64,000 nucleotides of DNA from Candidatus Omnitrophota bacterium. GTDB taxonomy: Bacteria; Omnitrophota; Gorgyraeia; Gygaellales; Profunditerraquicolaceae. The stretch spans positions 92,662 through 156,661 of the forward strand of contig JAQURC010000004.1 of assembly GCA_028715785.1 (NCBI GenBank), in the 5' to 3' direction. The notes below the pieces were generated by a model. The model searched no databases. It was not told the origin of the DNA and worked only from the letters and a program-made list of their open reading frames with translations. Below, one piece after another: positions 26,716 to 55,000 of this stretch. How positions within the stretch are numbered: the stretch's first letter is position 1; each line of letters opens with the position of its first letter. The translations under genes were made by a program, and so were the position numbers.

Positions 26716-26716
26716 T

Positions 26717-34352: not shown

Positions 34353-34354
34353 TA

Positions 34355-36532: not shown

Positions 36533-38808
36533 TGAACTTCTTCCGCAAAAACCTACCGACAAACCGCCGCAGCCAGATCGCCGTAATTATCACTTTTGTC
36601 ATCGCGGTAATTTTTTTATTCATGGCGGTATTTATAAATTTAAGCAAGGTAAGCCAGGTTAAGACCACCACCAGCACTGCCGCGGATAAGGCCGCTTTAA
36701 GTCTGGCCTCGCAGTTGGGCAGTATGAGCCATTATTATAAGGATAAGGTGTTAGGGGGGCAAACAGAGAAGACCGGGTATGGCTGGTTAGCGTTGATGTT
36801 GGTTTTAGTCGGTTCCATTGTAGGAGGAATTTTAATAAGTCCGGTAGTTCTTCTTACCGGATTGGGCTTGTTAGTTTCGATGTCAATGTCTACGTCTATG
36901 CTTGAAGGGATAAGCGATAGATTCAATAAAGAGATGACTACCTATACTGCCTTAAGGGAGAGCGCTCTGTTTGGGGCATTGCTTTCTACGCAGAGCGATG
37001 ATGTTGAGTTAAAAAGGGTAGGGGCGGGTATTTTCCGCGACGAGGTAACCGGCAAAGACTATGATTTAAGCGCTATCCCTGAAATGCGCAATGCGAATAA
37101 AGTAGGCAGGTTCGCTGCCTGGTATTATGCCTTGCGGCAGCCGCTGGTGAGCGATGATGATTTAAAAGAGGCCTTGGATAAATTTAAAAACGGGCTCAAG
37201 AGATTTATCGCTATTGACGAATGGGACAATACAAAGTGGAAGATTAGCAGGCTTTCTTATTTTATCGAGCCGGTTCCGGCGCAAAATTCGGCTAATTACG
37301 AAATTACCTGTACTTCCTGCCCTGCTTGGGTTAAAGATATTGCCCACAAACAAATAGCAATCATGAAAATAGACGCAACTCAACCGGACGGACCAAGCCA
37401 GATTACCGGCGGTTTTTTAAAAGATAAGTTTTTAAGCTTATTGAGCCGATTGAGCTATGCATATGGGCTAACCTTTTGCAGTAAACCTGAAACGTTTACC
37501 CAAACAGCAATCTGTGACGATGTAGTTAAGCTGATGGAAGACTTGAGGATGTTTTTATTCAGAAGTAAAGAGCTTGTGGATACGCCTATGACTGAGGCAT
37601 TAAACAGCACAACGCAATGGCTTCCTTTTTTTTACGATTCTGCGCAGCATAATCTGGATAAAAGCAGTATAGATGGGGATTTGGAGGATGACGCTTATGA
37701 GCGTTTGACTCGCGACCAGAATACTATCAATTCTTGGATTACAGAGTTGGAAAAATTAAATAATACCACAATTAAGCCCGAAATAATAAATAACCATGGA
37801 GGTTATTGCGAACAAGGAAGGCCGGATAGCGATGTGGTTAGTAATTGTTTTACTGCTTTAGAATCTTGCTATTGTTGGCATACTGAATGCGGTGAATATA
37901 GTTGTTGGAAGGTATGCGATGGAAGTAAATGCAAGACATCGCTTCCTGCCCGATGGCATGGCAATTATGGAACTTGCACAGGCAGCGGATTCAACCATAC
38001 CACGCATCCGGTCTGTCAAAAAGGGGATTTATACCAAGCGCAGCCTGATTATCTTGGTTCTAATTGGTGCAATAAGTTGAGGTCTGTCCCTTGTGTGTCT
38101 CATAATGATAGCTGCGATCAATGCAGTCCGCCTCCCACCAGTACTGTAATGGATAATTCCTACAATTTTCAAGGCCAGATGTCCTGGGAGAATACCTCCG
38201 GCCCGACCGAAGTCGAGCAAGCGCTCAAAATTCTGCGGGCCTTGAATTATGATATCGGTAGTATAAAAAAGAGTATCGAGGAGTATGTAGATGCGCAAAT
38301 AAAACATCTTACTCCGACGTGTTTACCGGGATTGCCATGCGCCCTTAAAATAAGAAACGAAATCGTTTATGCCTGGAAGGATAAGCCTAAGTCGGATGGC
38401 AGCCAGCAATTCTCTCACTTTGTGCAGGTAGCGATAGAAGGTTATCCAGAGAAGCTTCCTTATATTAGCGAAACTGTGAAGTGGTTAGGGCAGAAGAAGA
38501 CCTGGAAATTAGAAAATGCCGCAGGAGATCTTAAAATAATGGTCCGGCGTTACGATCAAGACCAGCCGACGGATGTAGGGAAAACAGATAAAGGGTGGGA
38601 GCTTAAGCGCAGGAAAACACCCGGTGCCGAAGAATTTTCTCCCAAACAATTAGAGGATATAGTAGCGGATATCCAGGCCGACGGCAAAATAGACTCAACC
38701 CAGAATTCTGTCGACTCAATTTTAGGTTACGCGATTACCAGCTGCAGCAAGGCGCATTACGGCCCGGAAAAAAGAGATATTTATATAAGTGGAACTAAAT
38801 GTGAGTAA
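36532..38808 (+). CDS. TadG-like pilus-associated protein with large Cys-rich extracellular domain
   Basis: 758 aa. N-terminus (RRSQIAVIITFVIAVIFLFMAVFINL) resembles the Tad N-terminal domain of TadE/TadG. About 24 Cys concentrated in residues 420-530. It ends in tandem TAA TAA. Confidence 0.5.
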   Translation: MNFFRKNLPTNRRSQIAVIITFVIAVIFLFMAVFINLSKVSQVKTTTSTAADKAALSLASQLGSMSHYYKDKVLGGQTEKTGYGWLALMLVLVGSIVGGILISPVVLLTGLGLLVSMSMSTSMLEGISDRFNKEMTTYTALRESALFGALLSTQSDDVELKRVGAGIFRDEVTGKDYDLSAIPEMRNANKVGRFAAWYYALRQPLVSDDDLKEALDKFKNGLKRFIAIDEWDNTKWKISRLSYFIEPVPAQNSANYEITCTSCPAWVKDIAHKQIAIMKIDATQPDGPSQITGGFLKDKFLSLLSRLSYAYGLTFCSKPETFTQTAICDDVVKLMEDLRMFLFRSKELVDTPMTEALNSTTQWLPFFYDSAQHNLDKSSIDGDLEDDAYERLTRDQNTINSWITELEKLNNTTIKPEIINNHGGYCEQGRPDSDVVSNCFTALESCYCWHTECGEYSCWKVCDGSKCKTSLPARWHGNYGTCTGSGFNHTTHPVCQKGDLYQAQPDYLGSNWCNKLRSVPCVSHNDSCDQCSPPPTSTVMDNSYNFQGQMSWENTSGPTEVEQALKILRALNYDIGSIKKSIEEYVDAQIKHLTPTCLPGLPCALKIRNEIVYAWKDKPKSDGSQQFSHFVQVAIEGYPEKLPYISETVKWLGQKKTWKLENAAGDLKIMVRRYDQDQPTDVGKTDKGWELKRRKTPGAEEFSPKQLEDIVADIQADGKIDSTQNSVDSILGYAITSCSKAHYGPEKRDIYISGTKCE

Positions 38809-38988
38809 TAAAAAGTTATTTTTCTTCAGCCTCTTATATTTTTTTTTCTATTCGGAGTCGGCTTAGCGCAAGCGGAATCCGCAATTGATATCCTCGTTTT
38901 CTCGCCTCATCCCGATGATGAAACCCTCGCCTGTGGCGGAACCATCCTTAAGGCAATCCAAGAAAATAAAAAGGTAAAAATTGTTTTT

Positions 38989-41982
38989 TTGACTAACGGA
39001 GATGGCAATATAGCCGAGGAACTCCCTGCGCCCGAAGATTATATTTCTTTGGGAGAAAAACGCCAGCAAGAAGCATTGCGGGCAACCGGAAAACTCGGCC
39101 TTAAGGAGGAAGATATAATATTTTTAAGTTACCCCGATACCGGCTTATCTTCCCTTTGGAGAGAAAGCTACAATGTTAATCGCGAGAATTCAAAAGCTGC
39201 CCCTTATAATTTCTATAAATCAAAAACTACAAAAAAGATTTTTTCTCCTTACAAGATAACTTATAATCATGCAAAGAAGGGATGTACACGGGAGAATCTT
39301 CTATTAGACATTAAGGATATTTTAAAGGAATATAAGCCAAAAAGTATTTATACACCTCATCTTTTAGATGGTTCTCCCGACCATCAAGCAACTACCAGGC
39401 TGGTGTTTGATGCTTTAAATGAATTGGCGGGCACTGGTAGACATAGCTGGATTGGTTCTTTGGGGGTCTCCTATTATCTTATTCATCCCCCGGTTATGGA
39501 ATCAGAACAAGGATATTCTATTTGGCCGGATAAAAATTCGGCATTACTGGATGCCCCCGCCGTCTTTACCGAGAAGCCTCCCCGCAGTGAAAATATCGTT
39601 AGTTTTAAACAAAACAAAAGAGAGGCACTGGAAGAATATCGCACGCAACTGGATACAGAAGAAAAGATTTTCCTGGAGAGTTTTATTAAAGATAACGAAA
39701 TATTCTGGGATGCGCCCCCAGATAAACTAAGCCACCTTAGTGAGGTTAGGGATGAATGGGAAAGAGTTGGCAGGATAATGCAGAATCAGGGATATAATGT
39801 AAATTTTGGAGTAATCGCTGATATCGCTGATTCCCTGGAAAATATGCGTAACCCTTTAGCTAGAAAGGGCCGGATGTATTCCGAGCATTCTTCTTTGGTT
39901 GCGGAATTGGTTCTTTCCGCGGTTACCGGGATGGATAAAACAGGGGTAATACCGGTAGTCAAGCATTTTCCCGGTTTGGGCTCCAATAATGCCGATACGC
40001 ATATTTCACTACCAGTGATAAAAAAATCAAAAAAAGAACTTTATAAACGCGACCTGGTACCCTTTAAAGAGCTGATTAAAAAAAATGTGCATTTCTGGGT
40101 AATGAGCGACCACGCCATTTATCCATATTTAAGCCAAGAACCGGCCTCCTTGTCTTATGCAGTCCAAACTCAGGTTTTGCGGAAAAAACTGGGTTTTGAA
40201 GGCGTAATCATTACCGATGAACTTTTAAATATGCAGGCGATTGAAGAATACGCAAGAATTGAAAAAATTAAAGAACCCTATATCGGCGAGATTATCGTAA
40301 GGGCGTTTCAGTCTGGGGCGGATATTGGCCTATTTTATGTAGATTCTCCCCAACAGGCAAAAAAGGTGATAATAGAGGTAATCAATTCGGTCAAGCAGGC
40401 AGTGGTTAAAGGAAAAATCAAAGAAGAGGAAATAGATGCTTCGGTCAGAAGGATACTTAAAGACAAAGAAAGAATATTTAAACAGCCGCTAGAGCATTTT
40501 CTCAAAGAGATGACCTTGAAAGAAAAAATTTCCCAGAAACTTTTTACAGATGCCTACACTTCTAAAGAAGAAGATACCCGGGAATGGTTAGAAATATTAA
40601 AAGAGTATAATCTTGCGGGCATATTGCCGCGCAATTCTAAAATTATACCACAACTACAAAATAACTCTAAGATCCCGTTATTTATTGCTACCCAGTATGA
40701 AGGAGGGCTAATTACCTATGGCCATAATTTTTGTACGCGCAGTGCGTATATAATGGGCAAGGAATCTGAGCGATTGATTCTTAAGGCAGGGATTAAGATC
40801 CCCTCCCTATCTTTTAGGAAAACAAAAATCAGGCATTTATATAGTGAACGACAAGCATCCTCTTTATTTTCAAAATTAAATAAAGCGAGGCGCCAGGCGT
40901 TGGCCGCTTCTTTGCTTAATAGCATTGATAAACTGATTACGGCCTGGTCAGAGTTGGAGGAAAAAGGATATACCGCGCCAAACCCCAATCATCTTTCCCC
41001 GTTAACGATCTACTCTAACGGAAGATTTGAGATCAAACCGTATGAGGATATGGCGGATTTACCCGTCGCCTGGACAAAAAAATTCCCCGATGAGGATACT
41101 GCCCTGTGCGCTTATTATTTGTTTAAGAAGACATTTGATGATTGGCCGGATAGCCAAAAGAGAGCAGAGGAGGCAAAGAGTATAGTTTCCCGCCTGGTTT
41201 CTTTCAGAGAAAGAGTGGAAGAACAAACAAGCAAAATAGATAAAAGCCGGATACGCATCCTCTGTTTGGCTGGCCATCCTGATGATGAAGATGGCGAAGC
41301 GCTTGCCTATTTCAGCAAGAAATTCAATTGTGAAACTTATGTGCTTTTAGCAACGCGCGGGGAAGGAGGAGAAAATAAAATCGGCTCTGCCCGCAAGGAA
41401 AAATTGGGACTTTTACGCACCAAAGAGATGGAAAAAGCCGCGTCAATTTTAGGGGTAAAAAAAGTATATTATTTAGGCAAGACAGATTTTGGTTATACTT
41501 CTTCTGTGGAAGAGGTATTTAAGCAGTGGGGCAAAGAAGATACATTAGAAAAACTAGTTTATTTTATCCGCCTGATTAAGCCGCAGATTATTATTACTAA
41601 GCACAATGAAGCTAACTCCAGGGAACACGGCCAGCATCAGGCTTTAATTATGTTGGCTAAAGAGGCGTTTGATTTAGCCGGCGGTCCAAGGGTTTACCCC
41701 GGGATGATTGCCGATGGGCGCTTGCCTTGGCAGCCGCTTAAGTTTTATCAAAGGGCTATAGAGATGAATGCTTTCCCAGTAAAAATTACAATTAATCCGG
41801 ATGAGTATATTTTTCCCGGAAATAAAACATACCGCCAAATTTCGATGGAGGCATTGAGACAACATCGCACCCAGGGGATATCCAAATGGTTCAAAGAGAC
41901 CGGAGATGTTTCTTATCAGTTAGTTGCATCTAAAGTTAAGCAAGTATGCCCGGAGGGTTCCTTCTTTGCGGGAATCAATTAA
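38989..41982 (+). CDS. Tri-domain enzyme: PIG-L/LmbE deacetylase - GH3 (NagZ-like beta-N-acetylhexosaminidase) - PIG-L/LmbE deacetylase; true start likely upstream (about 38801) via a frameshift
   Basis: PIG-L motifs (H)PDDE occur twice (ILVFSPHPDDETLACGG upstream in-frame; LAGHPDDEDGEALAY at the C-terminus). GH3 motif KHFPGLGSNNADTHISLPV. See the finding on the T9 frameshift. Confidence 0.65.
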   Translation: MTNGDGNIAEELPAPEDYISLGEKRQQEALRATGKLGLKEEDIIFLSYPDTGLSSLWRESYNVNRENSKAAPYNFYKSKTTKKIFSPYKITYNHAKKGCTRENLLLDIKDILKEYKPKSIYTPHLLDGSPDHQATTRLVFDALNELAGTGRHSWIGSLGVSYYLIHPPVMESEQGYSIWPDKNSALLDAPAVFTEKPPRSENIVSFKQNKREALEEYRTQLDTEEKIFLESFIKDNEIFWDAPPDKLSHLSEVRDEWERVGRIMQNQGYNVNFGVIADIADSLENMRNPLARKGRMYSEHSSLVAELVLSAVTGMDKTGVIPVVKHFPGLGSNNADTHISLPVIKKSKKELYKRDLVPFKELIKKNVHFWVMSDHAIYPYLSQEPASLSYAVQTQVLRKKLGFEGVIITDELLNMQAIEEYARIEKIKEPYIGEIIVRAFQSGADIGLFYVDSPQQAKKVIIEVINSVKQAVVKGKIKEEEIDASVRRILKDKERIFKQPLEHFLKEMTLKEKISQKLFTDAYTSKEEDTREWLEILKEYNLAGILPRNSKIIPQLQNNSKIPLFIATQYEGGLITYGHNFCTRSAYIMGKESERLILKAGIKIPSLSFRKTKIRHLYSERQASSLFSKLNKARRQALAASLLNSIDKLITAWSELEEKGYTAPNPNHLSPLTIYSNGRFEIKPYEDMADLPVAWTKKFPDEDTALCAYYLFKKTFDDWPDSQKRAEEAKSIVSRLVSFRERVEEQTSKIDKSRIRILCLAGHPDDEDGEALAYFSKKFNCETYVLLATRGEGGENKIGSARKEKLGLLRTKEMEKAASILGVKKVYYLGKTDFGYTSSVEEVFKQWGKEDTLEKLVYFIRLIKPQIIITKHNEANSREHGQHQALIMLAKEAFDLAGGPRVYPGMIADGRLPWQPLKFYQRAIEMNAFPVKITINPDEYIFPGNKTYRQISMEALRQHRTQGISKWFKETGDVSYQLVASKVKQVCPEGSFFAGIN

Positions 41983-41986
41983 AAAT

Positions 41987-42454
41987 ATGCCCAAGAAAAA
42001 TAGCTCTTGGAATTATTATCATAAAATCTTGATTGTAGGGACAAGTATTTGGATGCTGCTATTTTCAGCTATCGGAAATATTTACGCTCAAGAACCGGAA
42101 GAGGAGTCATTCAATAGAGGAAAGGATTATTTTAAAAAACAGAAGTATGAGGAAGCACTGATTGCATTTGATGCGGCTATCCACATTAATCCGAAGTACG
42201 CAGATGCTTATTTTTACCGCGGGGTTGTTTATGCGGATAGATACAAATTTGATGAGGCTCTTTTGGATTATGCCAAGGCAATAGAAATTGATCCAAATTT
42301 AAGTTATGTTTATGTTAATCGCGCAATGGTGTATTTTTTAATAAAAGAATATGATAAAAGTTGGGAAGATACGCATAAGGCAGAGTCGTTAGGGTATAAG
42401 GTGGATGAGAAGTTCCTTGAAAGTCTCAAAAAAGCTTCCAACAGGGGAAATTAA
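41987..42454 (+). CDS. TPR-repeat protein, secreted/periplasmic
   Basis: N-terminal hydrophobic segment then three TPR units (YFYRGVVYADRYKFDEALLDYAKAIEIDPN…). ATG 41987 is chosen because it lies just after the upstream stop. Confidence 0.65.
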   Translation: MPKKNSSWNYYHKILIVGTSIWMLLFSAIGNIYAQEPEEESFNRGKDYFKKQKYEEALIAFDAAIHINPKYADAYFYRGVVYADRYKFDEALLDYAKAIEIDPNLSYVYVNRAMVYFLIKEYDKSWEDTHKAESLGYKVDEKFLESLKKASNRGN

Positions 42455-42796
42455 ATGAAAATCATTAATCTAAGCAATAACGCGGTTTTGGCGGATAAGG
42501 CCGGGATGGCGGATACGTTCTGGAAGCGGTTGGTGGGCCTGCTTAACCGCAATTCACTGGAAAAAGGAGAAGCCCTGATCCTAAAGCCGGCAAACAGCAT
42601 CCACACATTTTTTATGCGTTTTCCCATAGACGTTTTATTCCTGGACAAAAACAGCAAGATTATCGCCTTGTTTCCCGTGCTTAGGCCTTTTCGGATTACC
42701 CCTGTTTATTTTGGCGCTTATTTAGCCATTGAATTGCCGGCAGGCACCCTCCAACTTACGCAAACAAAATTAGCAGATAGCATTAAAATCGAATAA
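42455..42796 (+). CDS. DUF192-family protein
   Basis: 113 aa. LILKPANSIHTFFMRFPIDVLFLD matches the DUF192 (COG1430) pattern. Confidence 0.65.
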   Translation: MKIINLSNNAVLADKAGMADTFWKRLVGLLNRNSLEKGEALILKPANSIHTFFMRFPIDVLFLDKNSKIIALFPVLRPFRITPVYFGAYLAIELPAGTLQLTQTKLADSIKIE

Positions 42797-42917
42797 ATGT
42801 CCAATTACCTAATGAATGTTCAAAATAATGTCCAATCTGTATAAAATTATCCCTCTAGACAAAAGAATCCCTCATAACTCGTAACAATTTACCATTGAGA
42901 AGCATGCTGTGTCATTG

Positions 42918-42976
42918 CGAGGAGTTTTAAGATTGCTTCGCTCTCTTCGGTCGCTCGCAACGACACCGAGTGACCT
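42918..42976. repeat. Palindromic repeat element (GTGTCATTGCGAGGAG … CTCGCAACGACAC), family member A
   Basis: 13-bp inverted repeat with an internal GATTGCTTCG core. Related copies at 51613-51720 and 53045-53113. Confidence 0.6.
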
Positions 42977-43045
42977 CCAAAAGCCAGACTGTTACAAAGC
43001 AAGTTTAAATCTCTGGAAACGCTTTCTTTTGTGAGGGATATATAC

Positions 43046-43074
43046 TTGACAAGCACCCCCCTGCGTGGTAATCT
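43046..43074 (+). promoter_or_regulatory. Strong sigma70-like promoter for the pilin gene array
   Basis: TTGACA, 17 nt, TAATCT, about 60 nt upstream of the first pilin ATG. Confidence 0.55.
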
Positions 43075-43135: not shown

Positions 43136-43345
43136 ATGGGGTTTATAATGGCTTTTAAAAAGGCCGATAAAAGCCATCTTGCGCCAAGAAAATTCTCCGA
43201 TAAAAAAGCGCAGTCAATATTTGAATACGTAATATTAACGGCCGTGGTAGTGGCAGTTGTTTTGATTTTTGGGCCGTATTTCGATGATATAAAAAAGTCC
43301 TGTACTAAAGCTTTTAATGATGCAGTCACGGAGATCGTAAAATGA
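43136..43345 (+). CDS. Flp-family type IVb pilin 1
   Basis: 69 aa. Class III signal-like KKAQSIFEYVILTAVVVAVVLIF. Confidence 0.7.
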   Translation: MGFIMAFKKADKSHLAPRKFSDKKAQSIFEYVILTAVVVAVVLIFGPYFDDIKKSCTKAFNDAVTEIVK

Positions 43346-43485
43346 GAAACAAAGCGCAAAGCACAATCGAATACGCCTTATTGATTGCCATTGTGGCGGC
43401 GGCATTTTTGGCAATGAACGTCTATATGCAGCGTTCGGTGCAGGCGAATTTTAACGTAATTGAAGAGCAGATAAATACGCCGTAA
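43342..43485 (+). CDS. Flp-family pilin 2 (47 aa; below the ORF-track size cutoff)
   Basis: MRNKAQSTIEYALLIAIVAAAFLAMNVYMQRSVQANFNVIEEQINTP*. ATG overlaps the previous stop (TAAAATGA). Confidence 0.65.
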   Translation: MRNKAQSTIEYALLIAIVAAAFLAMNVYMQRSVQANFNVIEEQINTP

Positions 43486-43505
43486 CAAAAAGGAGGGAAT
43501 TAAAT

Positions 43506-43673
43506 ATGCGTAACAGAAAGGGCCAGAGTATCTTGGAGTACGTAATTGTGTTAACCGTAATAGTTATTGCGGTTGCTCTAGCAGCTAATACTTTAATTAG
43601 ACCCGCGGTGAAACAGGGGTTAGACGATGCTGCTAAAACCATCAACAAAGCTACGGAACAATTGCCAAAATAA
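43506..43673 (+). CDS. Flp-family pilin 3 (55 aa; below the ORF-track cutoff)
   Basis: MRNRKGQSILEYVIVLTVIVIAVALAANTL… has the G/XXXXEY motif. GGAGGG SD. Confidence 0.65.
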   Translation: MRNRKGQSILEYVIVLTVIVIAVALAANTLIRPAVKQGLDDAAKTINKATEQLPK

Positions 43674-43701
43674 TTTAATTTTTAGGGGGAGGTGAACAAA
43701 G

Positions 43702-44052
43702 ATGCTAAACAAAAAGGGCCAGAATACAGCGGAATACGCGATTCTTATCGCCTTGATAATTGCAGCAGCGGTAGGGATGCAGACTTACGTTAAGAGGGGT
43801 TTGCAGGGAAGGGTAAAGGACGTCGTTGATCATACCGGCCAGGAAGCGGAAGTGGGCGGGGCCAATTTGGGCTTTAGCGGCGACCAATATGAGCCATATT
43901 ATGCGGAGTCCGACACAAAGGTAAAAAGCGAGAGGACCGCCGAAGAAACATTGGGTAAACGCGGCGAGATTACCCGCAGTCAGGTAAAAGAAGAAACCAA
44001 GGTTGACGTAGGGGGAGTTGAGAAAGTCCACGGCACAACCGGAGCTGATTAA
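43702..44052 (+). CDS. Flp-like pilin 4 with about 70-aa C-terminal extension
   Basis: MLNKKGQNTAEYAILIALIIAAAVGMQTYVKRGLQGR… SD GGAGGTGAACAAAGATG. Confidence 0.7.
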   Translation: MLNKKGQNTAEYAILIALIIAAAVGMQTYVKRGLQGRVKDVVDHTGQEAEVGGANLGFSGDQYEPYYAESDTKVKSERTAEETLGKRGEITRSQVKEETKVDVGGVEKVHGTTGAD

Positions 44053-44066
44053 GGAGGTGAACAAAG

Positions 44067-44414
44067 ATGTTTAACAAAAAGGGCCAGAGCACATTAGAAT
44101 ACGCGTTGATAACCGCAGTGATAATTGCCGGGCTTTTGCTGATGCAGCATTATATGAAGCATGGTTATGCCGGGAGATTAAAGTCGTCTACCGATGATAT
44201 CGGCGAACAGTATGACCCCAGCAAATACAGCGGAAAATTTAAAGTAACCAATAAGAGCTATACACAGCAGACTCTTAAGGACAAAGCCACAAGTCAGACC
44301 TATCTTGACCTGGGCGGTACCGAGTCCGGCGCCGGCAGGGTGCAGAAAAAAGAAAGCCTTGGCGATGAAAGGGTTGAAAGTTGGGGCCAGGATGAGAGCC
44401 TGTATAGTAAATAA
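44067..44414 (+). CDS. Flp-like pilin 5 with C-terminal extension
   Basis: MFNKKGQSTLEYALITAVIIAGLLLMQHYMKHGYAGR… SD and leader nearly identical to pilin 4. Confidence 0.7.
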   Translation: MFNKKGQSTLEYALITAVIIAGLLLMQHYMKHGYAGRLKSSTDDIGEQYDPSKYSGKFKVTNKSYTQQTLKDKATSQTYLDLGGTESGAGRVQKKESLGDERVESWGQDESLYSK

Positions 44415-44424
44415 AATAACGGCA

Positions 44425-44754
44425 ATGCGCCGGGCGCAAAGCGTGGCTGAATATAGCATTTGTCTGGCATTGGTTTTAGCCGCGCTTTTGGGCATGCAGA
44501 TCTATGTAAAAAGGGGACTGCAGGGCAGATACAAAGAAGCGGTGGACCACGCGGCTAAACAGGCCGCAAGTGCGGCTCAATTGACTACAAGCCCTAAACA
44601 ATATGAGCCATACTATGTCCAGGACAAATTTACAGTTAATCAATCTAAGATAGTCAGTGAAGATATAGGGCATAAAGGCCAAACAACCCGGGATATCCTT
44701 GAGGATAAGGTAGGTATTGAGCAGGGTAGTAAAGCGATAAGGGATGTACAATAA
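44425..44754 (+). CDS. Flp-like pilin 6 with C-terminal extension
   Basis: MRRAQSVAEYSICLALVLAALLGMQIYVKRGLQGR… The internal ATG at 44425 is preferred to the ORF-track start 44305, which overlaps pilin 5. Confidence 0.6.
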   Translation: MRRAQSVAEYSICLALVLAALLGMQIYVKRGLQGRYKEAVDHAAKQAASAAQLTTSPKQYEPYYVQDKFTVNQSKIVSEDIGHKGQTTRDILEDKVGIEQGSKAIRDVQ

Positions 44755-45922
44755 AATGAAAATGCGCAAAACAGGCCAGAGCATAAATGAATATGTGTTG
44801 GTAATCGTCCTGGTTACCTTGGCCGGGATAGGTATGCAGAATTATATTAAGCGGGGCATACAGGGTATAGTGAAGACCTCTGCCGATACGCTGGCTGGTG
44901 AAAAGGGGGATACGGTTGTGTATTCGGGCAGCGACAAGAGTATTTTAACCCGCTATGATCAAGCCGGCAATTTACAGTGGAACCCGGTCGCGGTATCATA
45001 CGAGAGCAGGCTTAGCGGAGGTTTTTTCGTAGCAGAGAAGACCGGCAACCAAGTCCAGTATATTCATTATCCCGATACATCCGATCTTAATAATAAAATA
45101 ATCATCGGCGGCCAGGACCAGGCAAGCGGTGATTTTACCAGCTATGACTGGGAAGGTTACGTAGACGCGGTTTATGATAAAGACGGAAAATTAATAAAGA
45201 AATTTACTCCTCAAGAGGCAAGGGATAATTATTCTAAATATGACATAGTATTATTAAGTTCCGCGGCGGCCAAATCCATGGTTCAAAATGGAGTAGTTGA
45301 GCGAGGACTAATTGAATTTGGATATAAGGACCCTTTAAAACCACTAACGTTTAATACCCCCACCCCCAGAAAAATCACTGTGAAGACGTATTCAAAGTAT
45401 AGCGGCCCGAAAAGTTTAGCGTTAGCGGATTGGCATCCGGCCATGACAGCGTATAAAGAAAAAATGGAAGAAGATAAGATCGGGGGGTTTATTCAAACAG
45501 AAATAAAAGGCAGTATGGTTTATTACTACACCTTTACTACCAACCCTAAAGATAGAGTACTTATCGGCGGAGAGGATACCCGCACAGGTGATTTTACAGG
45601 ATTTGACCCGGATGGTTTTCCTGTATCGACCGTAGATGGCAAACTCAACGTGCTTAGGACATATAGCGGTTATCTAACTGACCCGGAAACAGAAGAAATT
45701 GTGGGCGTAACCGGCAGCGACGGCAAAATTTATGGGCAGCACCAAATAGTAACAATAAGCCCTGCTCTTCAAACTACCGGTCCGGCAACAGTTGCTATTC
45801 CGATGAGGACAAAGACCATAGACAATGATACGACTCAGGTTACAGGCGCTTGGGAGGCAACTTATAAATTAGGTACGGATATCTATAAACCGAAGGGCAA
45901 TACGCCCCCAATAAAAAAATAA
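44744..45922 (+). CDS. Flp-like N-terminus fused to about 350-aa C-terminal domain (pilin-like adhesin/minor pilin 7)
   Basis: MKMRKTGQSINEYVLVIVLVTLAGIGMQNYIKRGIQG… then a large Gly/Thr/Tyr-rich globular region. Start may be 44756. Confidence 0.65.
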   Translation: MYNKMKMRKTGQSINEYVLVIVLVTLAGIGMQNYIKRGIQGIVKTSADTLAGEKGDTVVYSGSDKSILTRYDQAGNLQWNPVAVSYESRLSGGFFVAEKTGNQVQYIHYPDTSDLNNKIIIGGQDQASGDFTSYDWEGYVDAVYDKDGKLIKKFTPQEARDNYSKYDIVLLSSAAAKSMVQNGVVERGLIEFGYKDPLKPLTFNTPTPRKITVKTYSKYSGPKSLALADWHPAMTAYKEKMEEDKIGGFIQTEIKGSMVYYYTFTTNPKDRVLIGGEDTRTGDFTGFDPDGFPVSTVDGKLNVLRTYSGYLTDPETEEIVGVTGSDGKIYGQHQIVTISPALQTTGPATVAIPMRTKTIDNDTTQVTGAWEATYKLGTDIYKPKGNTPPIKK

Positions 45923-45924
45923 TT

Positions 45925-46314
45925 ATGTTACTACAAATGAATAAAAAATATAGATTAGGCAGACCAAACGCGCAATCGACACTGGAATACGCCATCGTGG
46001 TTGCTTGCATAGTAGCGGCGCTTATAGGGATGCAGTTTTACGTAAGGCGGGGAATCCAGGGAAGGCTAAGAGCGGCAGGGGATGAGATCGGCGAGCAGTA
46101 TACTCCACTTAACGTGGAATCAAAAATTACTACAGAAACAACTTCAAATACGACAATAAGCCAGAGCCTGGTCCCCTTAAAAAAGGACGGTAACCCTATA
46201 TTTGACCAGTATGGTTTACCTGTGTATGGAATGAAAACAGAAGCGGGTATTGATGAAACTACCTCCAAAAGCGGAAAAGAAACATTAGGGGAGTTTGAAA
46301 ATGGTTTATTTTAA
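45925..46314 (+). CDS. Flp-like pilin 8 with C-terminal extension
   Basis: …RPNAQSTLEYAIVVACIVAALIGMQFYVRRGIQGR…. Confidence 0.65.
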   Translation: MLLQMNKKYRLGRPNAQSTLEYAIVVACIVAALIGMQFYVRRGIQGRLRAAGDEIGEQYTPLNVESKITTETTSNTTISQSLVPLKKDGNPIFDQYGLPVYGMKTEAGIDETTSKSGKETLGEFENGLF

Positions 46315-47332
46315 TAAAAAAGCGCAAAGTTTAACCGAGTTATCTGCTTTTGGCTCGGTACTTTTATTGGCGTTGTCTTTTCTTATAAGTTATGGGATGC
46401 GTTATAATTACCAGCAGGATATACAGATGCGCGCTTTTCGCACGGCCCTGGCTGAGGCCTATAACGTTACGCGGCCCGATGCCTCAGCTTCGGTTGTGCT
46501 GCTTAATGATAAGCATGTACCCGATCCCCGCGATATGTTTGGTGTAGGTAATATTGTTCCGGTGCAAGCCGAAGCCGAAGTAATCTGGGGCAACACTCTG
46601 CAGGATAAATATACCGACCTCACAGATAGATCACGTTTGCCCCGGAAGAAATATGTGGTTAACGGCAAAGAATACGAATATAGGACTGCAGGCTTTGGTT
46701 TCATTACCAATGCTGTTAAGATCGACGGTAGTGCTGCCAATCCATTTTACGTAATGCTTCCTAATAACAATGAACCACAGCTTGTGACTTGGGATAAGCT
46801 GCGTTGTTATCAACCCACCGGAGATTTACCTAAACAAGCAATGATTTTGCTGAATCCCGAAGCAGCTGATGCCGACAAACAAAAAGAAATAATCACTGAA
46901 GTTTATTTAAAGCGGGGAGAAAAATTGTATGTAAAGTATCAGGTTATCGGAGTAAGGACTGATCCTCCTACCGCTTCTGATGGAGCCTCGATTGACCGGT
47001 TGGATTTATTAAGCCCGGATTCAGGCGAGATTAATCCCAATTATACTCAGTTAAACAATGATGTTGATAATGATGGTATTCCGGATGTGACTCCCAATAA
47101 TCTCCAAGGGCTATTGTTTAATGATGAGCAGAATATCAGGCGCAGCGGCACGCTTACAATAGAAGAAACTCCCCAAAAAACTATAAGCACCAGCACATAT
47201 AGTTTTAGCAATAAAGCCGGGAAACCTACGACGATTACGCATAAAATTAGAGATAATTCCGGGGTGATTATGCCTGTCAGCTCTCCTTTTGATGGAAGGA
47301 CCAGGATATCCGAATGGACAACGCCAAAGTAA
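46295..47332 (+). CDS. TadE/TadF-like pseudopilin with large C-terminal domain
   Basis: 345 aa. KKAQSLTELSAFGSVLLLALSFLISYG is a TadE-like N-terminus. Confidence 0.6.
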   Translation: MKMVYFNKKAQSLTELSAFGSVLLLALSFLISYGMRYNYQQDIQMRAFRTALAEAYNVTRPDASASVVLLNDKHVPDPRDMFGVGNIVPVQAEAEVIWGNTLQDKYTDLTDRSRLPRKKYVVNGKEYEYRTAGFGFITNAVKIDGSAANPFYVMLPNNNEPQLVTWDKLRCYQPTGDLPKQAMILLNPEAADADKQKEIITEVYLKRGEKLYVKYQVIGVRTDPPTASDGASIDRLDLLSPDSGEINPNYTQLNNDVDNDGIPDVTPNNLQGLLFNDEQNIRRSGTLTIEETPQKTISTSTYSFSNKAGKPTTITHKIRDNSGVIMPVSSPFDGRTRISEWTTPK

Positions 47333-47571
47333 AGGCGCAAGTTGCGCTTGAATTTGTCACTGCCTTTATTTGCACCATTCTTTTATTGGTGCTGACTACG
47401 CAGCTTCTTGTCTGGTTTGGCAATAATATCGTTAACCGGCAGAAGGCATATGAAAGCACGCGGAGCATGGCACTTACCCTGGATACATCTGAACCCGTTG
47501 TCCCCAAAAAAGATTTTTATACGCCTTCTAAATTAAAGATATTCGGAAATACGGAAGAGTTACCAAAATAA
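47314..47571 (+). CDS. TadE-like pseudopilin (small)
   Basis: 85 aa. AQVALEFVTAFICTILLLVLTTQLLVWF. Confidence 0.55.
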   Translation: MDNAKVKAQVALEFVTAFICTILLLVLTTQLLVWFGNNIVNRQKAYESTRSMALTLDTSEPVVPKKDFYTPSKLKIFGNTEELPK

Positions 47572-47576
47572 TTAAA

Positions 47577-47786
47577 ATGAGAAAAAAAGGGATGAGCGTG
47601 GTAGAATATAGCTTGCTGGTTGCCATAGTAATCGCCGCGCTTCTGGCAATGCAGGTTTATGTTAAGCGGGCGGTAAGCGGACGCTGGAAGGAAGCAGGGG
47701 ATGTGTTTGGCTTTGGCAGGCAGACCTCCAAGACGATCCTAAGAACCCAGCCGCCCACAGGCGGCGGCGAATTACCAGGAATGTAA
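47577..47786 (+). CDS. Flp-family pilin 11
   Basis: 69 aa. MRKKGMSVVEYSLLVAIVIAALLAMQVYVKRAVSGR. Confidence 0.65.
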   Translation: MRKKGMSVVEYSLLVAIVIAALLAMQVYVKRAVSGRWKEAGDVFGFGRQTSKTILRTQPPTGGGELPGM

Positions 47787-49517: not shown

Positions 49518-49547
49518 ATTAAATAAAATTTAAATAGAAAAGGCAGG

Positions 49548-50136: not shown

Positions 50137-50167
50137 GATTGAATGCGTATTGATAAGCCTCAATTAT

Positions 50168-52010: not shown

Positions 52011-55000
52011 ATGAATACAAAACAGCCGCAGACAGAAAACAGTATCGAGCAACCGAAAAGTGAATTCAAGTCAAGTTTTAAAGCTTGGATCCGCGCGGTT
52101 GCTTTTGTTGTTATCGCGGTATTCCTGCCGGAGCAGGCGGCCCAGGCAATGGGCTATGATCCCACCACAATCTGGAACCATTCTTATTTTGTGAACCAGG
52201 GTAAAAACGGATTTTTAACTTATCTTGTCGCGGATAATATCAAACGTTCCCTGGATTCCCTGTCATACAAACAATTAAATCAGGTTCAACTGGATAAAAA
52301 TTTAGTAATTGAGACAGCCCCGCTTAAAGAATCAGAAACTATTGCGAAGGTCTCTGCGCCAATCAAGGGAGACCAAAGCAATTTTTTTGGTAAAATCGGC
52401 AATGCCCTACAAAGCGGCAGTGTGTCAATTTTCCGCCTTTTAACAAGCGGCCTGAAGAAAGATTCCTCACCCGATCAATCCCTCCCCACCACAAGGCAAG
52501 GAACCGCCTCCAGCCAGAAACCGTCACTTTATTTGACCGGATCAGTGGTAAAACAAATCAACCTGTGGCTTAAGGATCCAAAGACACAGGTTGATAACAA
52601 CTGCGGTATCAACGCGCTGAATGCTTTATTTGTCCAATCAGGAATTAAAGTAACCCGTGAGGAATTGGCAACCCGGGCGATTATGGTTGATTTTCTTTCA
52701 GGCAATTTAAGGGAGTTTAAAGGCGAGCTTGCCTTATCCCTTTTTGCCCTGCAAAAAACCGCCGCATCCTTTGGCCTTAAAACCGCTTTAGTCAAAATTC
52801 CCGCTTCGGCATTGAATCAAGGGGACGGTTCTGTTTTTCTAACACCAAACTCAGGAAAAATAGAACCGTCCCCTTTATTTCAAGTGGTTCCCTTCATCAC
52901 CTATCTTTTATCCGAGCATTTCGTCTTAGTCACCCGCGTAACCGAAGACAAGGTTTATTACAAAGAAGACAAAGAAGAAGCCAATATGCCCAAGGAGATT
53001 TTTCTCAAGGGCTTTACCGGCAATTGCCTGGTGCTTGCGGATTCTGTGTCATTGCGAGGGAGCGAAGCGACCCCCGTGTCATTGCGAGGAGCCGCAGGCG
53101 ACGAAGCAATCTCGTTCCTCTCCGACCAAGAAGCATTGCAAATCAGCGGAAAAGAGAGTTTAACCGATAGGTATAATTCATTGAAGTCATATGTCAGCAA
53201 CACCGCCAAATCCACCATCTCCACCGCCAAATCCTATGTTTCCACAGCCCGCAGCACCTATACTACCGCAAGCAATGTTTACAACGCAGTCAAGTCTGTA
53301 ACCGGTATTTCCGCAAGCTCTATTGTGACAAGAAGCTCCATCCCCAGCAATCCTCTAAGCGCCATCAGCGTTCCTGTAACCACATATAACTATCTGGCTA
53401 GCCCCTCCACCAAAGGAAATTTAGGCAAAAGCTATGGCGCTGCAAATACCCTGCAAACCGATTTCGCTTTAACCGTACCCAAGCGTGCATATGATTTTAC
53501 CGGCTGGGTAGATACTGTCAGCGGCCTTAATTCAAACCTGGGAACCAAGCTTTATCAGAGCTCCAGTCTAGTCAGATCCATCTCCGATGCTTATTCTGGG
53601 GTCAAAGGAAGAACCGAGTCCTCTTTAAAGCAAACCTACGGAATAGGGACTTATAATAATTTTATTAAACCATCAGAGGAATTTATTGCGGATAATGCAA
53701 TTATTACGGTTGCTACCTTAGGCGCTGGTTCAGCTGCCGGCCTTGCGGGAAGTACAGCCGCTCGGCTGGGCTCTGTAAGCCGCATTGCCGAACCTGTCAT
53801 TTCTCGCCTGCCTCAAATTAGCCGCTACACCGGCTCAATTTCTCGTTATCTACCAAACGGAGTTAATAGGATGCTTGGAAGCACCGAAGGAAGCCTCAAT
53901 ATTGCTTCCCATATTCCTAATTTGGAGCGGCTATCCAATACCGCCAAATGGGCGGGGACAAAAATATCTGGCGGCGCTAAATGGCTGACTAAACTTACAT
54001 CTCCGCGGCTACCACAGGTAAGAAATGCTATTAGAACAGAAATAAATATTATAAATAATGCACAGGGCTTAGCTCGTACATATAGACAAGTGACCTTTAT
54101 TCCAAGAATGGGCTGGAAGGCCACAGGCTATATCGGTAATTTTGTTAATATTCGCCCGCTAACTACTTACGGTTCGCTCGTTGGCATAGGGATGTATGAG
54201 TCATATGGCAAAGATATAAAAAGGGATCCATATCGCGGTGAAGCCGACCTTTTATGGTTAGGAAGCACTTGGCATCATTTCGCCCTTAATGATAAAAAAT
54301 CCGAAACATTTAAAACAAATTTAGAACAAAAAGGATTAACTTCAGATATTTATCTATTTGAAGAGGGTCGCCGCAAAGAGGAGGAAAATCCAGGGCTCTT
54401 AGGTCAGCTTTATGCAGCACCTTATCATTTTGGAAGCGGGTTGATTGGTTTCACTAAATTTGTTCCTTCTGCCGCGGATAAGGTATATTCAAGAGGTCGA
54501 AACGAAGGCATTAAAGCCGGCGCGCAAGAAGCATTTAGCACCGGAGTTGGCGTGGGTTCATTCTTGGCAGATTATTATGTTGCCACTCCGTATAATATAG
54601 TTTCCTCAACAATTAATTACGCATTCGGGTCGCAGATCAAAGGCATTAAGATCGGCGCCTTCCAGGAACTGTTATCTCAAAATCAAACTTTAAAACCTTG
54701 GGTATCTGACGGAGCTGTTCTTGCTCCGGAAGCAAAAGCCAAAGATTATTATCCTAATTTTGGTTTCTTTATCGGCTCAGCTCCTTTGATGCGCGGCCCG
54801 ATACAGAAAAGTATGCATGATAGAAGCGCCATAAAGCCGGAAAAAACTTCTACAGGCGCTCTTAGCCGCACCCACAAAATTATTATGGAGAAGAGCGACG
54901 CTACGTTTAATTTTCTTCTTGTTCCGGTTAACGCGGTTGCCGGCCCGATGTTTGGAGCGTTGCAATATTCCAAGGCGCGAGGAACCAATCTGCTAAACGG

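Follow-up and report, generated by a model that had tools for sequence, protein, structure and literature searches.

An old, conserved array of eleven pilin-like genes in a Tad-type locus of Omnitrophota

Canonical Tad/Flp (type IVc) loci, such as Aggregatibacter flp-tad, Caulobacter cpa and Pseudomonas flp-rcp, carry one to three flp genes plus tadE/F/G, whereas the Omnitrophota locus described here carries 11 to 12 pilin-like genes. This raises the question of whether all of these genes encode pilins and, if so, what so many subunits are for. The locus lies in a 64-kb stretch of DNA (64,000 nucleotides, hereafter the window) from a metagenome-assembled genome of an uncultured Candidatus Omnitrophota bacterium, and the array consists of eleven consecutive forward-strand ORFs (g1 to g11, 43148-47786) with intergenic gaps of -19 to +28 nt. 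Pfam scans identified the locus as Tad-like on the basis of CpaB, a secretin, a TadZ-CpaF fusion, a TadG-like protein, TadB and TadC. An upstream machinery block on the same strand (30890..42796) encodes a PPIase (30890-31795), CpaB/RcpC (31795-32703), a secretin with a TonB_C tail (32700-34352), the TadZ(ParA)-CpaF fusion (34355-36532), the TadG-like protein (36532-38808), a PIG-L/GH3 enzyme (38989-41982), a TPR protein (41924-42454) and a DUF192 protein (42455-42796), and it is syntenic in related loci L001/L003 and L017 and in Ca. Velamenicoccus archaeovorus LiM. The TadG-like gene is a twelfth pilin-related gene, located upstream of the array; its product has additional hydrophobic segments, which are atypical for a pilin. 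The platform genes tadB (47788-48633, forward) and tadC (48636-49517, forward), each encoding a T2SSF domain, follow the array after gaps of 1 and 2 nt, respectively, and belong to the same operon as the pilins. Farther downstream is the 5′ part of a giant forward-strand ORF (52012..63998) of at least 3,995 codons that exits the window and encodes an N-terminal Peptidase_C39 domain; at the equivalent position L001 has a gene for 18,761 aa.

All eleven array products share the motif [K/R]-[G/A]↓[Q/M]-x-x-x-E-[Y/L/F] followed by approximately 20 hydrophobic residues, such that each has a basic leader, a G/A↓Q site (Met at +1 in g11), Glu at +5 and a hydrophobic helix, which bears out the class III signal-like starts that the initial annotation had ascribed to eleven consecutive genes. 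A regular expression for this motif gave 11 forward-strand matches within 4.65 kb and none elsewhere in the window on either strand, and each of 80 related loci had 2-13 matches on its coding strand and at most one on the other. Among 641 distinct N-termini, K/R occurred at -2 in 76%, G/A at -1 in 99%, Q at +1 in 97% and Y at +6 in 79%. Archaeal class III signal peptide proteins (PF04021/UPF0333), the Pfam family most often matched by proteins of this type, likewise combine a short basic leader with Gln at +1 and Glu at +5 ahead of a hydrophobic helix; EppA peptidase substrates such as the Methanococcus Epd pilins belong to this family. The window proteins scored 13-18 bits against PF04021, for which the cut-off is 23.7. 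However, the Omnitrophota host is bacterial, the locus includes an outer-membrane-type secretin and RcpC, Ser is at +2 in these proteins but at +3 in the archaeal QxSxE motif, and no EppA-like gene was found near the array.

The products of these genes could alternatively be unrelated small membrane peptides, bacteriocin/immunity-like or regulatory, in which a charged N-terminus and a helix coincide by chance. None of g1-g11 reaches the Pfam/NCBIfam gathering score for Flp_Fap, TadE, Class_IIIsignal or N_methyl, g1 weakly matches a bacteriocin immunity family, and some g4 orthologues carry the JGI label 'gas vesicle protein'. While the Flp_Fap and TadE membership suggested initially was therefore not obtained at curated thresholds, the sub-threshold matches are consistent with it: 51 of 100 short pilins matched Class_IIIsignal (best E 1.6e-7), 22 Flp_Fap and 7 TadE, and sub-threshold matches were also seen for g1 (Class_IIIsignal, 17.6 bits), for g2 (Flp_Fap, 18.6 bits; Class_IIIsignal, 17.9 bits) and for 22 of 27 members of the g4 family (Class_IIIsignal). 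The best matches of a short-pilin profile were the solved Tad pilins 8u1k (Caulobacter PilA, E 0.008) and 8u2b (E 0.025), and RefSeq already names LiM members 'Flp family type IVb pilin'. Moreover, across 641 sequences the spacing of Q(+1), E(+5) and Y(+6) is fixed and these residues vary little or not at all, and the genes are found only beside Tad machinery genes. A chance resemblance is very improbable on these grounds. All eleven genes are real, and together they encode the pilin set of a Tad-type pilus machine; the earlier view of them as type IV (class III signal) pilin-like genes in a Tad locus is supported by both locus composition and motif.

The refined ORFs agree with the sizes first reported, from minimal to long, with short (47, 55 and 65-69 aa), intermediate (109-129 aa; g4, g5, g6 and g8) and long (386 and 343 aa; g7 and g9) classes, all on the forward strand. 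The short g1 (43148-43345; 65 aa, 20-aa leader, predicted cleavage KKA↓QSIFEY, orthologues 79-81% identical) starts at its second ATG (43148, MAFKK), the first being unconserved. The minimal Flp-sized g2 (43342-43485; 47 aa, mature 42 aa) is the most conserved of the set, with 91% identity to orthologues, and the Flp-sized g3 (43506-43673; 55 aa) is a candidate shaft or adapter subunit with a strong Shine-Dalgarno (SD) sequence, the SD match being 6-8 nt in many orthologues. The 'extended Flp' pilin g4 (43702-44052; 116 aa) has an N-terminal helix with MQTYVKRGLQGR, a conserved QYEPYY motif and a variable tail; with 416 homologues in Omnitrophota and the strongest SD of the array, it is the best candidate for a major subunit. 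A second 'extended Flp' pilin, g5 (44067-44414; 115 aa), has an SD as strong as that of g4, while g6 (44425, or 44365, to 44754; 109 aa), of the g4 family and 42% identical to g4, has a weak one. The extended pilin g8 (45925-46314; 129 aa, IGEQYTP motif, orthologues 77-79%) has no SD and is translationally coupled. The small minor-pilin-like g10 (47314-47571; 85 aa, orthologues 66%) has a TadE-style N-terminus (KA↓QVALEF) and directly follows g9 in most loci, and the Flp-sized g11 (47577-47786; 69 aa, KKG↓MSVVEY) is immediately upstream of tadB in every case.

We considered whether the long ORFs might be unrelated proteins with coincidental N-terminal helices, an outcome that the initial annotation had named as fatal to its proposal. 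Starts for g7 (44762-45922) and g9 (46301-47332) are NCBI calls. The first 42 residues of g7, which has 27 homologues, are 42-48% identical to g4 and g8 and include the family motif MQxYxKRGxQG. Its C-terminal extension of ~340 aa comprises two repeated beta-rich domains (internal repeat 36% identity, E 1e-12), which are at pLDDT 80-90 (residues 60-165 and 220-340) in an AlphaFold2 model of low overall confidence (pLDDT 65), and it has no credible PDB match. In g9, a member of a large uncharacterised family, Q9, T12, E13, F17 and G18 do not vary among 37 homologues, none of which matches TadE, and the AlphaFold2 model shows a long N-terminal helix (11-54) leading into an all-beta globular domain. 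Because of the likeness of the g7 N-terminus to g4/g8, the invariant residues of g9 and the g9 model, both are true family members and not coincidental resemblances. Structure prediction thus recovered a pilin-like helix plus beta domain in g9; no structural relatives were detected for the large C-terminal domains of either g7 or g9. The ~340-aa double domain of g7 is specific to its lineage among Omnitrophota loci: at position 7, most other loci encode orthologues of just 90-170 aa, and the size varies from ~90 to 383 aa between lineages.

The sigma70-like promoter noted before the array proved to be part of a conserved promoter island (43015..43074, forward) comprising an upstream block, GGAAACGCTTTCTTTT (43015-43030), a perfect -35 TTGACA (43046-43051), a 17-nt spacer and an extended -10 TGgTAATCT (43066-43074). 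Since only three of six positions match in the -10 hexamer (43069-74), a generic promoter scanner left this promoter unlisted. The island is near-invariant in three related species (L003, L004 and L052) while the surrounding intergenic DNA diverges; the differences are one substitution in the upstream block and one base in the -10 (TAACCT in L052). An intrinsic terminator-like hairpin (49545-49571, forward) with a 12 bp stem and a T run ends the operon, and transcription from the promoter to this terminator would yield one 13-gene unit of eleven pilins, tadB and tadC. The Tad complex of LiM is expressed in co-culture with Methanosaeta (PMC10066038). Metatranscriptome and metaproteome data for LiM (PMC12583861 supplement), mapped to the array by accession, showed that all array genes are co-transcribed and that transcript levels rise from 20 TPM at the upstream gene to 236 TPM at the first pilin gene, the pilin operon as a whole ranging from 54 to 1484 TPM and being transcribed roughly 10-60 times above neighbouring genes. 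The orthologue of g4 (QAT16251; 637 TPM) is an abundant protein at 1906 ppm riBAQ, and that of g5 (QAT16252) is the top transcript of the operon at 1484 TPM, but was not detected as protein in the metaproteome. Orthologues of g3, g6 and g11 (QAT16259) were at 554 TPM, 595 TPM (53 ppm) and 243 TPM (55 ppm), respectively. The absence of the g5 orthologue as protein, together with abundances of the TadG-like protein and an unrelated 165-aa protein equal to that of the g4 orthologue, does not fit a simple shaft-versus-tip stoichiometry.

Eleven tandem pilin genes had been regarded as an unusual expansion. However, ordered arrays of 7-13 such genes (median ~10) are present in 43 fully covered related Omnitrophota loci, including that of LiM, and are the norm across the phylum. 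The window is an orthologous instance of the Omnitrophota Tad-like or 'type II secretion-like' locus (Seymour et al., 2023, PMC10066038; West-Roberts et al., 2023, bioRxiv 10.1101/2023.11.21.568195), of which CP019384.1 12382-29832 is the LiM instance; in LiM the TadG-like gene lies inside the array rather than upstream. The array is in part already described, as the small genes were noticed beside Omnitrophota giant genes, but those papers mention them only in passing and do not include their number, paralogue families, conserved order, expression hierarchy or large-domain members. In the closest genomes every window gene has a one-to-one orthologue (60-91% identity), with the small pilins (78-91%) about as conserved as TadB/TadC (84-87%); only g7, g9, g10 and the TadG-like gene (53-75%) evolve markedly faster and vary in size.

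These rates, the great differences between paralogue C-terminal regions and the changing size of the position-7 protein would suit a repertoire, recently duplicated and diversifying, from which one major subunit or tip adhesin at a time is used to match a given host or surface, and interchangeable tips exist in Myxococcus. The Myxococcus xanthus Kil Tad pilus (Herrou et al., 2025, PMC12075869), from a predatory bacterium, has one major and 14 minor pilins, among them 'adapter' pilins of Flp-like type and large TadE/F/G-like proteins whose beta domains are exposed at the tip; it resembles the Omnitrophota system in its Tad-type machine and large pilin complement. However, Kil pilins occupy several clusters with four redundant tip sets, their partner is T3SS-like and the authors' own tip HMMs detect homologues of tip1-4 in Myxococcota only, whereas the Omnitrophota pilins form one ordered operon with a single copy per family, have a giant gene as conserved neighbour, meet no curated TadE threshold and include a ~110-aa 'extended Flp' class with QYEPYY that is not among the Kil classes described in the passages considered. 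Array paralogues are also old, with 23-58% identity over aligned parts, and inverted repeats, a recombinase and silent cassettes are all absent from the operon. The recent duplication of g4 and g5 proposed from their similar leaders did not hold: they are only 33% identical, separate orthologues of the two occur in genomes as distant as V. archaeovorus, and the leader DNA common to both, a strong SD plus conserved leader codons, is present in their orthologues too. By sequence, g5 is an old paralogue of g4, and the pair is duplicated as one unit in L016, L025 and L059. Given the co-transcription in LiM and orthologues kept in order, a repertoire of this kind is improbable; in place of one diversified for varied hosts we find ordered, distinct paralogue families, an old, conserved, phylum-wide arrangement.

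The proximity of the giant gene brings in another alternative, in which a short periplasmic pseudopilus acts as a type II secretion (T2SS) piston, its many 'pilins' being pseudopilins that push the giant protein or the PIG-L/GH3 hydrolase through the secretin instead of building an adhesive pilus outside the cell. The array is upstream of the giant ORF in the window, in 24 of 35 related loci it is followed by an ORF that runs past the locus end, the locus itself includes a hydrolase gene, T2SSs also use several minor pseudopilins, and West-Roberts et al. call the locus type-II-secretion-like and conserved upstream of giant genes. However, as in canonical Tad/Flp systems, the machinery includes CpaB/RcpC, an RcpA-type secretin with a CpaC-type N-domain, CpaF/TadA, TadB, TadC and a TadZ-like domain, while GspC, GspL and GspM were absent from the Pfam scan results. 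The short pilins share the G↓xxxxEY-type site with canonical ones, and their best solved match is a Tad pilus subunit; they differ in very short leaders (3-5 aa), Gln at +1 and unmet Flp_Fap/TadE thresholds, and the locus differs in the fusion of TadZ to the ATPase, the TonB_C domain on the secretin and the lack of tadV. The abundance of the g4 orthologue suits a long polymer more than a short piston, the C39 peptidase domain of the giant ORF is typical of type I/ABC export, and proteins of thousands to tens of thousands of residues would be implausible folded T2SS substrates. A secretion piston is therefore unlikely, though less so than the two preceding alternatives.

We favor, with a probability of about three in four, the interpretation that g1-g11 together make up the full, conserved set of pilins for a Tad-like (type IVc) filament machine of Omnitrophota whose subunits divide the labour. 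Each product would be a prepilin with a short basic leader. Against this reading, no prepilin peptidase gene is present in the window or within ~10 kb of the array in 80 related loci; cleavage after Gly/Ala(-1) would fall to an A24-type peptidase encoded elsewhere in the genome and would leave Gln at +1 (Met in g11). Assembly on the TadB/TadC platform, driven by Glu(+5) and the hydrophobic helix, would then draw its energy from the TadZ-CpaF ATPase, with the filament exiting via the CpaB-secretin conduit. We propose g3, g4 and g5 as shaft subunits because strong ribosome-binding sites are concentrated on them across the phylum, their V. archaeovorus transcripts are high and the g4 orthologue is abundant as protein; the variable tails after QYEPYY would lie on the filament surface. 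The Flp-sized, poorly translated g1, g2 and g11 may be low-abundance adapters, while g6 to g10 and the upstream TadG-like protein may serve as minor pilins in priming assembly and capping the tip, where g7 and g9 would display their large beta-rich domains to make contact with the surface of a host or prey cell. The paralogue set looks like a division of labour among shaft, adapter and tip rather than a set of interchangeable variants, and the position of the array directly upstream of a giant surface-protein gene fits the attachment or predation apparatus proposed for Omnitrophota.

Eleven open reading frames succeed one another without interruption on the forward strand between positions 43136 and 47786, and we refer to them as g1 to g11 (43148-47786 from the g1 start codon). 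They are separated by -19 to +28 nt, followed by spacings of 1 and 2 nt into tadB and tadC. When the N-termini were aligned, all eleven showed a short basic leader, a Gly/Ala-Gln step (Met in g11), a Glu four residues further on that is usually followed by Tyr, and about 20 hydrophobic residues. The Glu at +5 is present in every one, while position +6 is Tyr in nine, Leu in g9 and Phe in g10. A regular expression for this motif, run on both strands of the 64-kb window, matched only g1-g11. Mature sizes of 42-64 aa are predicted only for g1, g2, g3 and g11, the products of g4-g10 being longer.

The initial annotation had assigned these genes to the Flp/TadE type, and this was borne out for the N-termini: the prepilin site G↓xxxxEY followed by a hydrophobic helix, as used to recognize Flp pilins, occurs in 11 of 11 genes. 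It was not borne out by the curated models, as none of the window pilins reached an HMM threshold in Pfam or NCBIfam and the NCBIfam scan returned matches at noise level only. The best Flp_Fap (PF04964) scores were 18.6 bits for g2 and 13.4 for g5 against a cut-off of 32.2, the TadE (PF07811) cut-off of 22.9 bits was not reached, with g9 and g10 having no match, and g1, g2, g4 and g5 scored 13-18 bits for Class_IIIsignal (PF04021; cut-off 23.7). Among 100 short pilins from related loci, 51 matched Class_IIIsignal and 22 matched Flp_Fap (best 2.8e-5) at E<0.1, with further matches to DUF4244 (13), TadE (7) and archaeal flagellin (6); 22 of 27 members of the g4 family also matched Class_IIIsignal at this threshold, the best E-value for that model being 1.6e-7. 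A profile built from the 100 short pilins and compared with PDB sequences had as its top matches the Caulobacter Tad pilin PilA (8u1k, E 0.008) and an Flp pilin (8u2b, E 0.025); the g4-family profile found no relevant match there. A logo of 641 distinct N-termini, in which Glu at +5 was fixed by the search pattern, had Gln at +1 in 97% and K/R at -2 in 76% of sequences, with a median leader of 9 residues. The set has the Gln +1 and Glu +5 after a short basic leader that are typical of class III signals, and judged by sequence these N-termini look closer to the archaeal class III pattern than to classical Flp. In the Epd pilins of Methanococcus, Gln+1 is turned into pyroglutamate. Several members from the cultured relative Ca. 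Velamenicoccus archaeovorus (LiM; closed genome CP019384.1) appear in RefSeq/UniRef as 'Flp family type IVb pilin' or 'class III signal peptide-containing protein'. The standard Flp and TadE models thus under-annotate pilin systems of the Omnitrophota type.

The locus might alternatively encode a secretion-type pseudopilus instead of a filament. A sub-threshold N_methyl/GspH match was found in g3 only, the best N_methyl score in the window was 17.1 bits (cut-off 21.2), and a Pfam scan of all ORFs of the locus found no GspC, GspL or GspM domain, so that neither N_methyl-bearing GspG-K pseudopilins nor the GspC/L/M components of type II secretion were recognized. We consider this the weaker alternative to a Tad-like filament, for which the machinery is present. 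The ATPase and platform proteins matched T2SSE (4.9e-62) and T2SSF (1.7e-17 and 2.3e-15), and matches to Secretin (1.5e-40), T2SS-T3SS_pil_N (4.4e-13), and RcpC (4.4e-25) plus SAF account for the secretin and RcpC. TadZ/CpaE is represented by AAA_31, CbiA and ParA domains at residues 2-190 of the 725-aa ATPase. Canonical Tad loci carry TadZ/CpaE and CpaF as separate genes, whereas here (34355-36532, +) this ParA/MinD-like region is fused to a CpaF/T2SSE domain at residues 372-647; the fusion is kept in the related Omnitrophota locus L001 (725 aa) and in V. archaeovorus (740 aa). The RcpA/CpaC-type secretin with its pilus N-domain (32700-34352, +) has a C-terminal TonB_C domain (aa 471-549), an unusual tail that suggests an anchor to peptidoglycan or another partner.

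By Pfam, the genes upstream of the array encode a Rotamase_2 PPIase, RcpC/CpaB, the secretin, the TadZ-CpaF fusion, a TadG-like protein, a PIG-L/GH3 enzyme, a TPR protein and a DUF192 protein. The TadG-like protein (758 aa) scored 21.4 bits against the PF13400 cut-off of 22.3 over residues 15-57; it lacks a Glu at +5 and contains two further hydrophobic segments. Between it and the pilin operon lies a 997-aa enzyme of PIG-L deacetylase/GH3 (NagZ-like)/PIG-L arrangement (38989-41982, +), which is 89% identical in locus L003 and 48% in L017 and could, from its domains, have a cell-wall-remodelling or prey-wall-degrading activity. The TPR protein (41924-42454), a candidate for the TadD-type lipoprotein pilotin, has a signal-anchor region without a Cys lipobox. 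The DUF192 (COG1430) gene (42455-42796, +) was found 5′ of the array in all five related loci compared (L003, L004, L017, L052 and LiM); it is directly upstream in most loci, with an HTH gene intervening in LiM. The Tad region begins with a 765-aa protein without Pfam domains (28486-30783, +) that shows weak similarity (21% identity, E 5e-9) to a LiM protein annotated as 'helix-turn-helix domain-containing protein', whose gene is directly 5′ of the pilin operon (6831-8402 of the LiM locus, L045); the 765-aa protein may be a regulator of the locus. Just upstream, on the opposite strand, is a c-di-GMP module of a FIST-domain protein, a histidine kinase and a GGDEF response regulator (24297-27904); PilZ genes downstream of giant genes have been reported by West-Roberts et al. 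(bioRxiv 10.1101/2023.11.21.568195). Searches for multi-TM ORFs and for the GxGD[VIAFLM][KR] motif returned only unrelated proteins, with no TadV/CpaA-type A24 prepilin peptidase in the 64-kb window or within ~10 kb of the array in 80 related loci. The predicted processing would depend on an unlinked gene.

A candidate pilin promoter, composed of TTGACA, a 17-nt spacer and TGgTAATCT, lies upstream of the array at 43046-43074; a generic promoter scanner missed it because the -10 hexamer fits at just 3 of 6 positions. The block GGAAACGCTTTCTTTT (43015-43030) is located 16-31 nt 5′ of the -35 hexamer. In an alignment of the window with three related species, this block and the promoter island were near-invariant while the remaining intergenic DNA had diverged, the only substitutions being one in the -10 (L052) and one A/G in the block. 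The block may be a regulator-binding site or UP element of the operon. The same alignment identifies the second ATG (43148) as the g1 start. The g6 start is ambiguous (44365-44425): the ATG at 44425 would give a leader of 4 residues and has no equivalent in L003, where translation from the sole upstream ATG would yield a leader of 23 residues whose coding sequence extends back into the end of g5. In the NCBI annotation of the source MAG, g7 starts at 44762 and g9 at 46301, and the proteins identical to these two are tagged PHP73_04995 and PHP73_05005. A predicted terminator with a 12-bp stem (49545-49571) lies 3′ of tadC. We also observed a REP-like palindromic element with the core GTCATTGCGAGGAG in five intergenic copies (42911, 51646, 51706 on the reverse strand, 53048 and 53078), compared with 0.22 expected by chance; these elements create spurious ORFs such as 42909-43034 and 51594-51851.

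We then considered how far the array is shared, using 80 related loci, LiM included, that were gathered by alignment of g4 homologues. The nearest homologues of g4, g7 and g9 all come from Candidatus Omnitrophota MAGs. Several related contigs bear the labels Planctomycetia, Dehalococcoidia or Deltaproteobacteria; since the array in them is of the same Omnitrophota type, we discounted the labels as mis-binning and did not take them as spread beyond the phylum. Fully covered loci have 7-13 pilin-like genes on the coding strand (median ~10) and 0-1 on the opposite strand. They follow a recurrent order that opens with two to four Flp-sized genes, continues with g3-, g4- and g5-type genes and more genes of intermediate size, and closes with one large g9-type gene, a g10-type gene and, immediately 5′ of tadB, a g11-type gene. 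The LiM array has 12 pilin-like genes, with a TadG-like gene inside it. The array had been taken as exceptional relative to typical Tad loci, but its size and order make it an ordinary member of this group. In the closest genomes each window pilin gene has a one-to-one orthologue, with identities of 91% for g2, 84-91% for g11, 80-83% for g5, 79-81% for g1, 78-79% for g4, 77-79% for g8, 69-84% for g3, 71-73% for g6, 66% for g10, 62% for g7 and 60-75% for g9. The corresponding values are 92% for CpaF, 87% for TadB, 84-85% for TadC and 53-71% for the TadG-like protein. Constraint on the small pilins is thus close to that on the machinery, and the large ones evolve faster.

The genes g4 and g5 encode extended Flp pilins, an intermediate class of ~110 aa with a QYEPYY motif. 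Because they share a near-identical Shine-Dalgarno (SD) sequence and leader, they had been thought to be recent duplicates. Over 111 residues the two proteins share only 33% identity, less than the 42% between g4 and g6, the most similar pair of the array, and the same strong SD is found in the g4 and g5 orthologues of L003, L004 and even LiM. For these reasons we reject recent duplication or gene conversion. The DNA common to the two genes, GGAGGTGAACAAAGATG...AACAAAAAGGGCCAG, is a strong SD sequence with conserved leader codons. In fully covered loci, 6-8-nt matches to AGGAGGTG cluster on the g3, g4 and g5 orthologues; most other array genes have a weak SD or none and are tightly coupled to the preceding gene. 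In three loci (L016, L025 and L059) the pair is tandemly duplicated as a unit (g4-g5-g4-g5), which hints that the two proteins act together. The low identity of this pair, the one-to-one orthologues and the recurrent gene order likewise do not support the proposal of the initial annotation that the array is a recently diversified adhesin repertoire.

Expression could be assessed in LiM from metatranscriptome TPM and metaproteome riBAQ values (Table S2, Lonsing et al. PMC12583861), with GenBank accessions assigned to ORFs by exact sequence match. Transcript levels were 20 TPM for the upstream HTH gene, 236 for the first pilin gene (p1), 554, 637, 1484, 595, 378 and 243 for the g3-, g4-, g5-, g6-, g9- and g11-type genes, 459 for the TadG-like gene, and 200 and 338 for tadB and tadC. 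This hierarchy agrees with the prediction based on SD sequences. At the protein level the g4 orthologue was abundant (1906 ppm riBAQ) and the g6 and g11 types were detectable (53 and 55 ppm), with 5.6 ppm for the HTH protein, 4.5 ppm for TadB and 14 ppm for TadC; p1 and the g3 and g9 types had no detected value, and the g5 orthologue was likewise undetected in the LiM metaproteome. Small proteins of pilin size give few tryptic peptides. At 1698 ppm, the TadG-like protein is about as abundant as the g4 orthologue, which makes the protein values inconsistent with a simple shaft-versus-tip stoichiometry. The highest protein level in the LiM locus (3085 ppm; 357 TPM) is that of QAT16258, a 165-aa protein unique to the LiM array, which is encoded between the TadG-like gene and the last pilin gene (15324-15821 of L045); it is without a Pfam match, and the window array contains no counterpart of it.

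The two longest proteins had been described as pilins with globular domains. The AlphaFold2 model of g9 (pLDDT 85.3) has an N-terminal helix of 44 residues (11-54) followed by an all-beta domain of 19 strands. As modelled, this is a generic pilin architecture, encoded beside flp genes and tadB/tadC and with processing that is predicted. The TadE part of the description fails for g9: at the HMM level a bona fide TadE is ruled out, since 0 of 37 family members match that model. Among ten distant relatives, three have a weak N-terminal TadE match (13.6-15.1 bits), and the one that bears a taxon name is from Omnitrophota. Conservation in the family is concentrated in the first ~140 residues, and a full HMMER scan recovered 1044 cluster representatives at E<=1e-3, making g9 a member of a large uncharacterised minor-pilin family overlooked by current HMM libraries. 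The N-terminus of g7 belongs to the g4/g8 family, and its extension consists of two repeated beta-rich domains (36% identical, E 1e-12), modelled with pLDDT 80-90 inside the domains and 65 overall, with no credible PDB match. In most other lineages, the gene at the g7 position encodes 90-170 residues only.

Downstream of tadB and tadC are ORF6N genes, a ParE/Phd toxin-antitoxin pair and a giant ORF. The two ORF6N (KilA-N/Rha-like) paralogues (49630-50136 and 50944-51456), whose ends are near-identical, flank the ParE-toxin/Phd-antitoxin pair (50168-50696, -), and the block as a whole (49630-51456) forms an insertion that separates tadC from the giant gene, where L001 carries just one ORF6N gene. 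The giant ORF (52012-63998, +) extends over at least 3,995 codons to beyond the end of the window. It begins with a TM segment and a Peptidase_C39 domain (aa 239-346), is almost without further Pfam domains in its first 4,000 residues, and is preceded by a promoter-like TTGACA-17-TATATT near 51815. The equivalent position in L001 holds a gene of 18,761 aa, and in 24 of 35 related loci an ORF running off the locus end follows the array. West-Roberts et al. (bioRxiv 10.1101/2023.11.21.568195) found this locus type conserved upstream of Omnitrophota giant genes, and Seymour et al. (PMC10066038) described the same locus as the Tad complex of Velamenicoccia and LiM as predatory. Given the link to giant genes and the predation of LiM, a role in host or prey contact is the likeliest function.

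Taken together, the best-supported reading is that the array is a conserved single-operon pilin set of a Tad-like filament with division of labour. In such a filament g3, g4 and g5 would be strongly expressed shaft subunits, g1, g2 and g11 would serve as Flp-like adapters, and g6-g10 with the TadG-like protein would form priming and tip subunits, leaving the domains of g7 and g9 exposed. The closest functional precedent is the Kil pilus of Myxococcus, for which PMC12075869 describes one major and 14 minor pilins, Flp-like adapters and TadE/F/G-like tips. A bolder version, which we regard as improbable, is an Omnitrophota Tad filament of a new kind, combining a g4/g5 heteropolymer shaft, archaeal-type signals and coupling to the giant protein. 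Its shaft may consist of two co-major extended Flp pilins, those with the strongest ribosome-binding sites and duplicated as a pair in some lineages; Gln at +1, possibly made pyroglutamate, may be exposed by an unlinked peptidase; the tip may carry folds without known relatives (the g7 repeats and the g9 family); and the filament may be an anchor, track or delivery device of the giant protein during host-cell attack. If this were true, the lineage could stand between the archaeal repertoire of Epd-type pilins and the bacterial repertoire of Tad pilins.

Earlier publications already cover the locus type, its expression and the occurrence of genes with class III signals, the window being a further member; the literature so far offers a one-line remark on 'many small genes with class III signal peptides', and PMC13153191 makes no mention of pili. 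Relative to the literature found, the paralogue families, their conserved order, the g4/g5 pair, the g9 family and the absence of a peptidase appear to be new. Coming after the Kil study in particular, the advance is incremental more than unexpected. Bacteria of the Omnitrophota occur widely, are for the most part ultra-small, and are thought to be predators or parasites. What their genomes reveal about attachment to other cells and attack on them comes mainly from the Tad-like locus and the giant genes beside it. The anatomy of the array turns the one-line remark into a defined parts list, a conserved operon of 11-13 pilins from distinct families, in which g4 and g5 are a likely shaft pair with high expression in LiM, the sole relative in culture. 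For work on the Velamenicoccus-Methanothrix co-culture, this list names concrete proteins at which antibodies, cryo-ET and structure prediction can be aimed. These findings do not overturn current ideas and agree with the view now taking shape that Tad pili are functionalised through tips of minor pilins.
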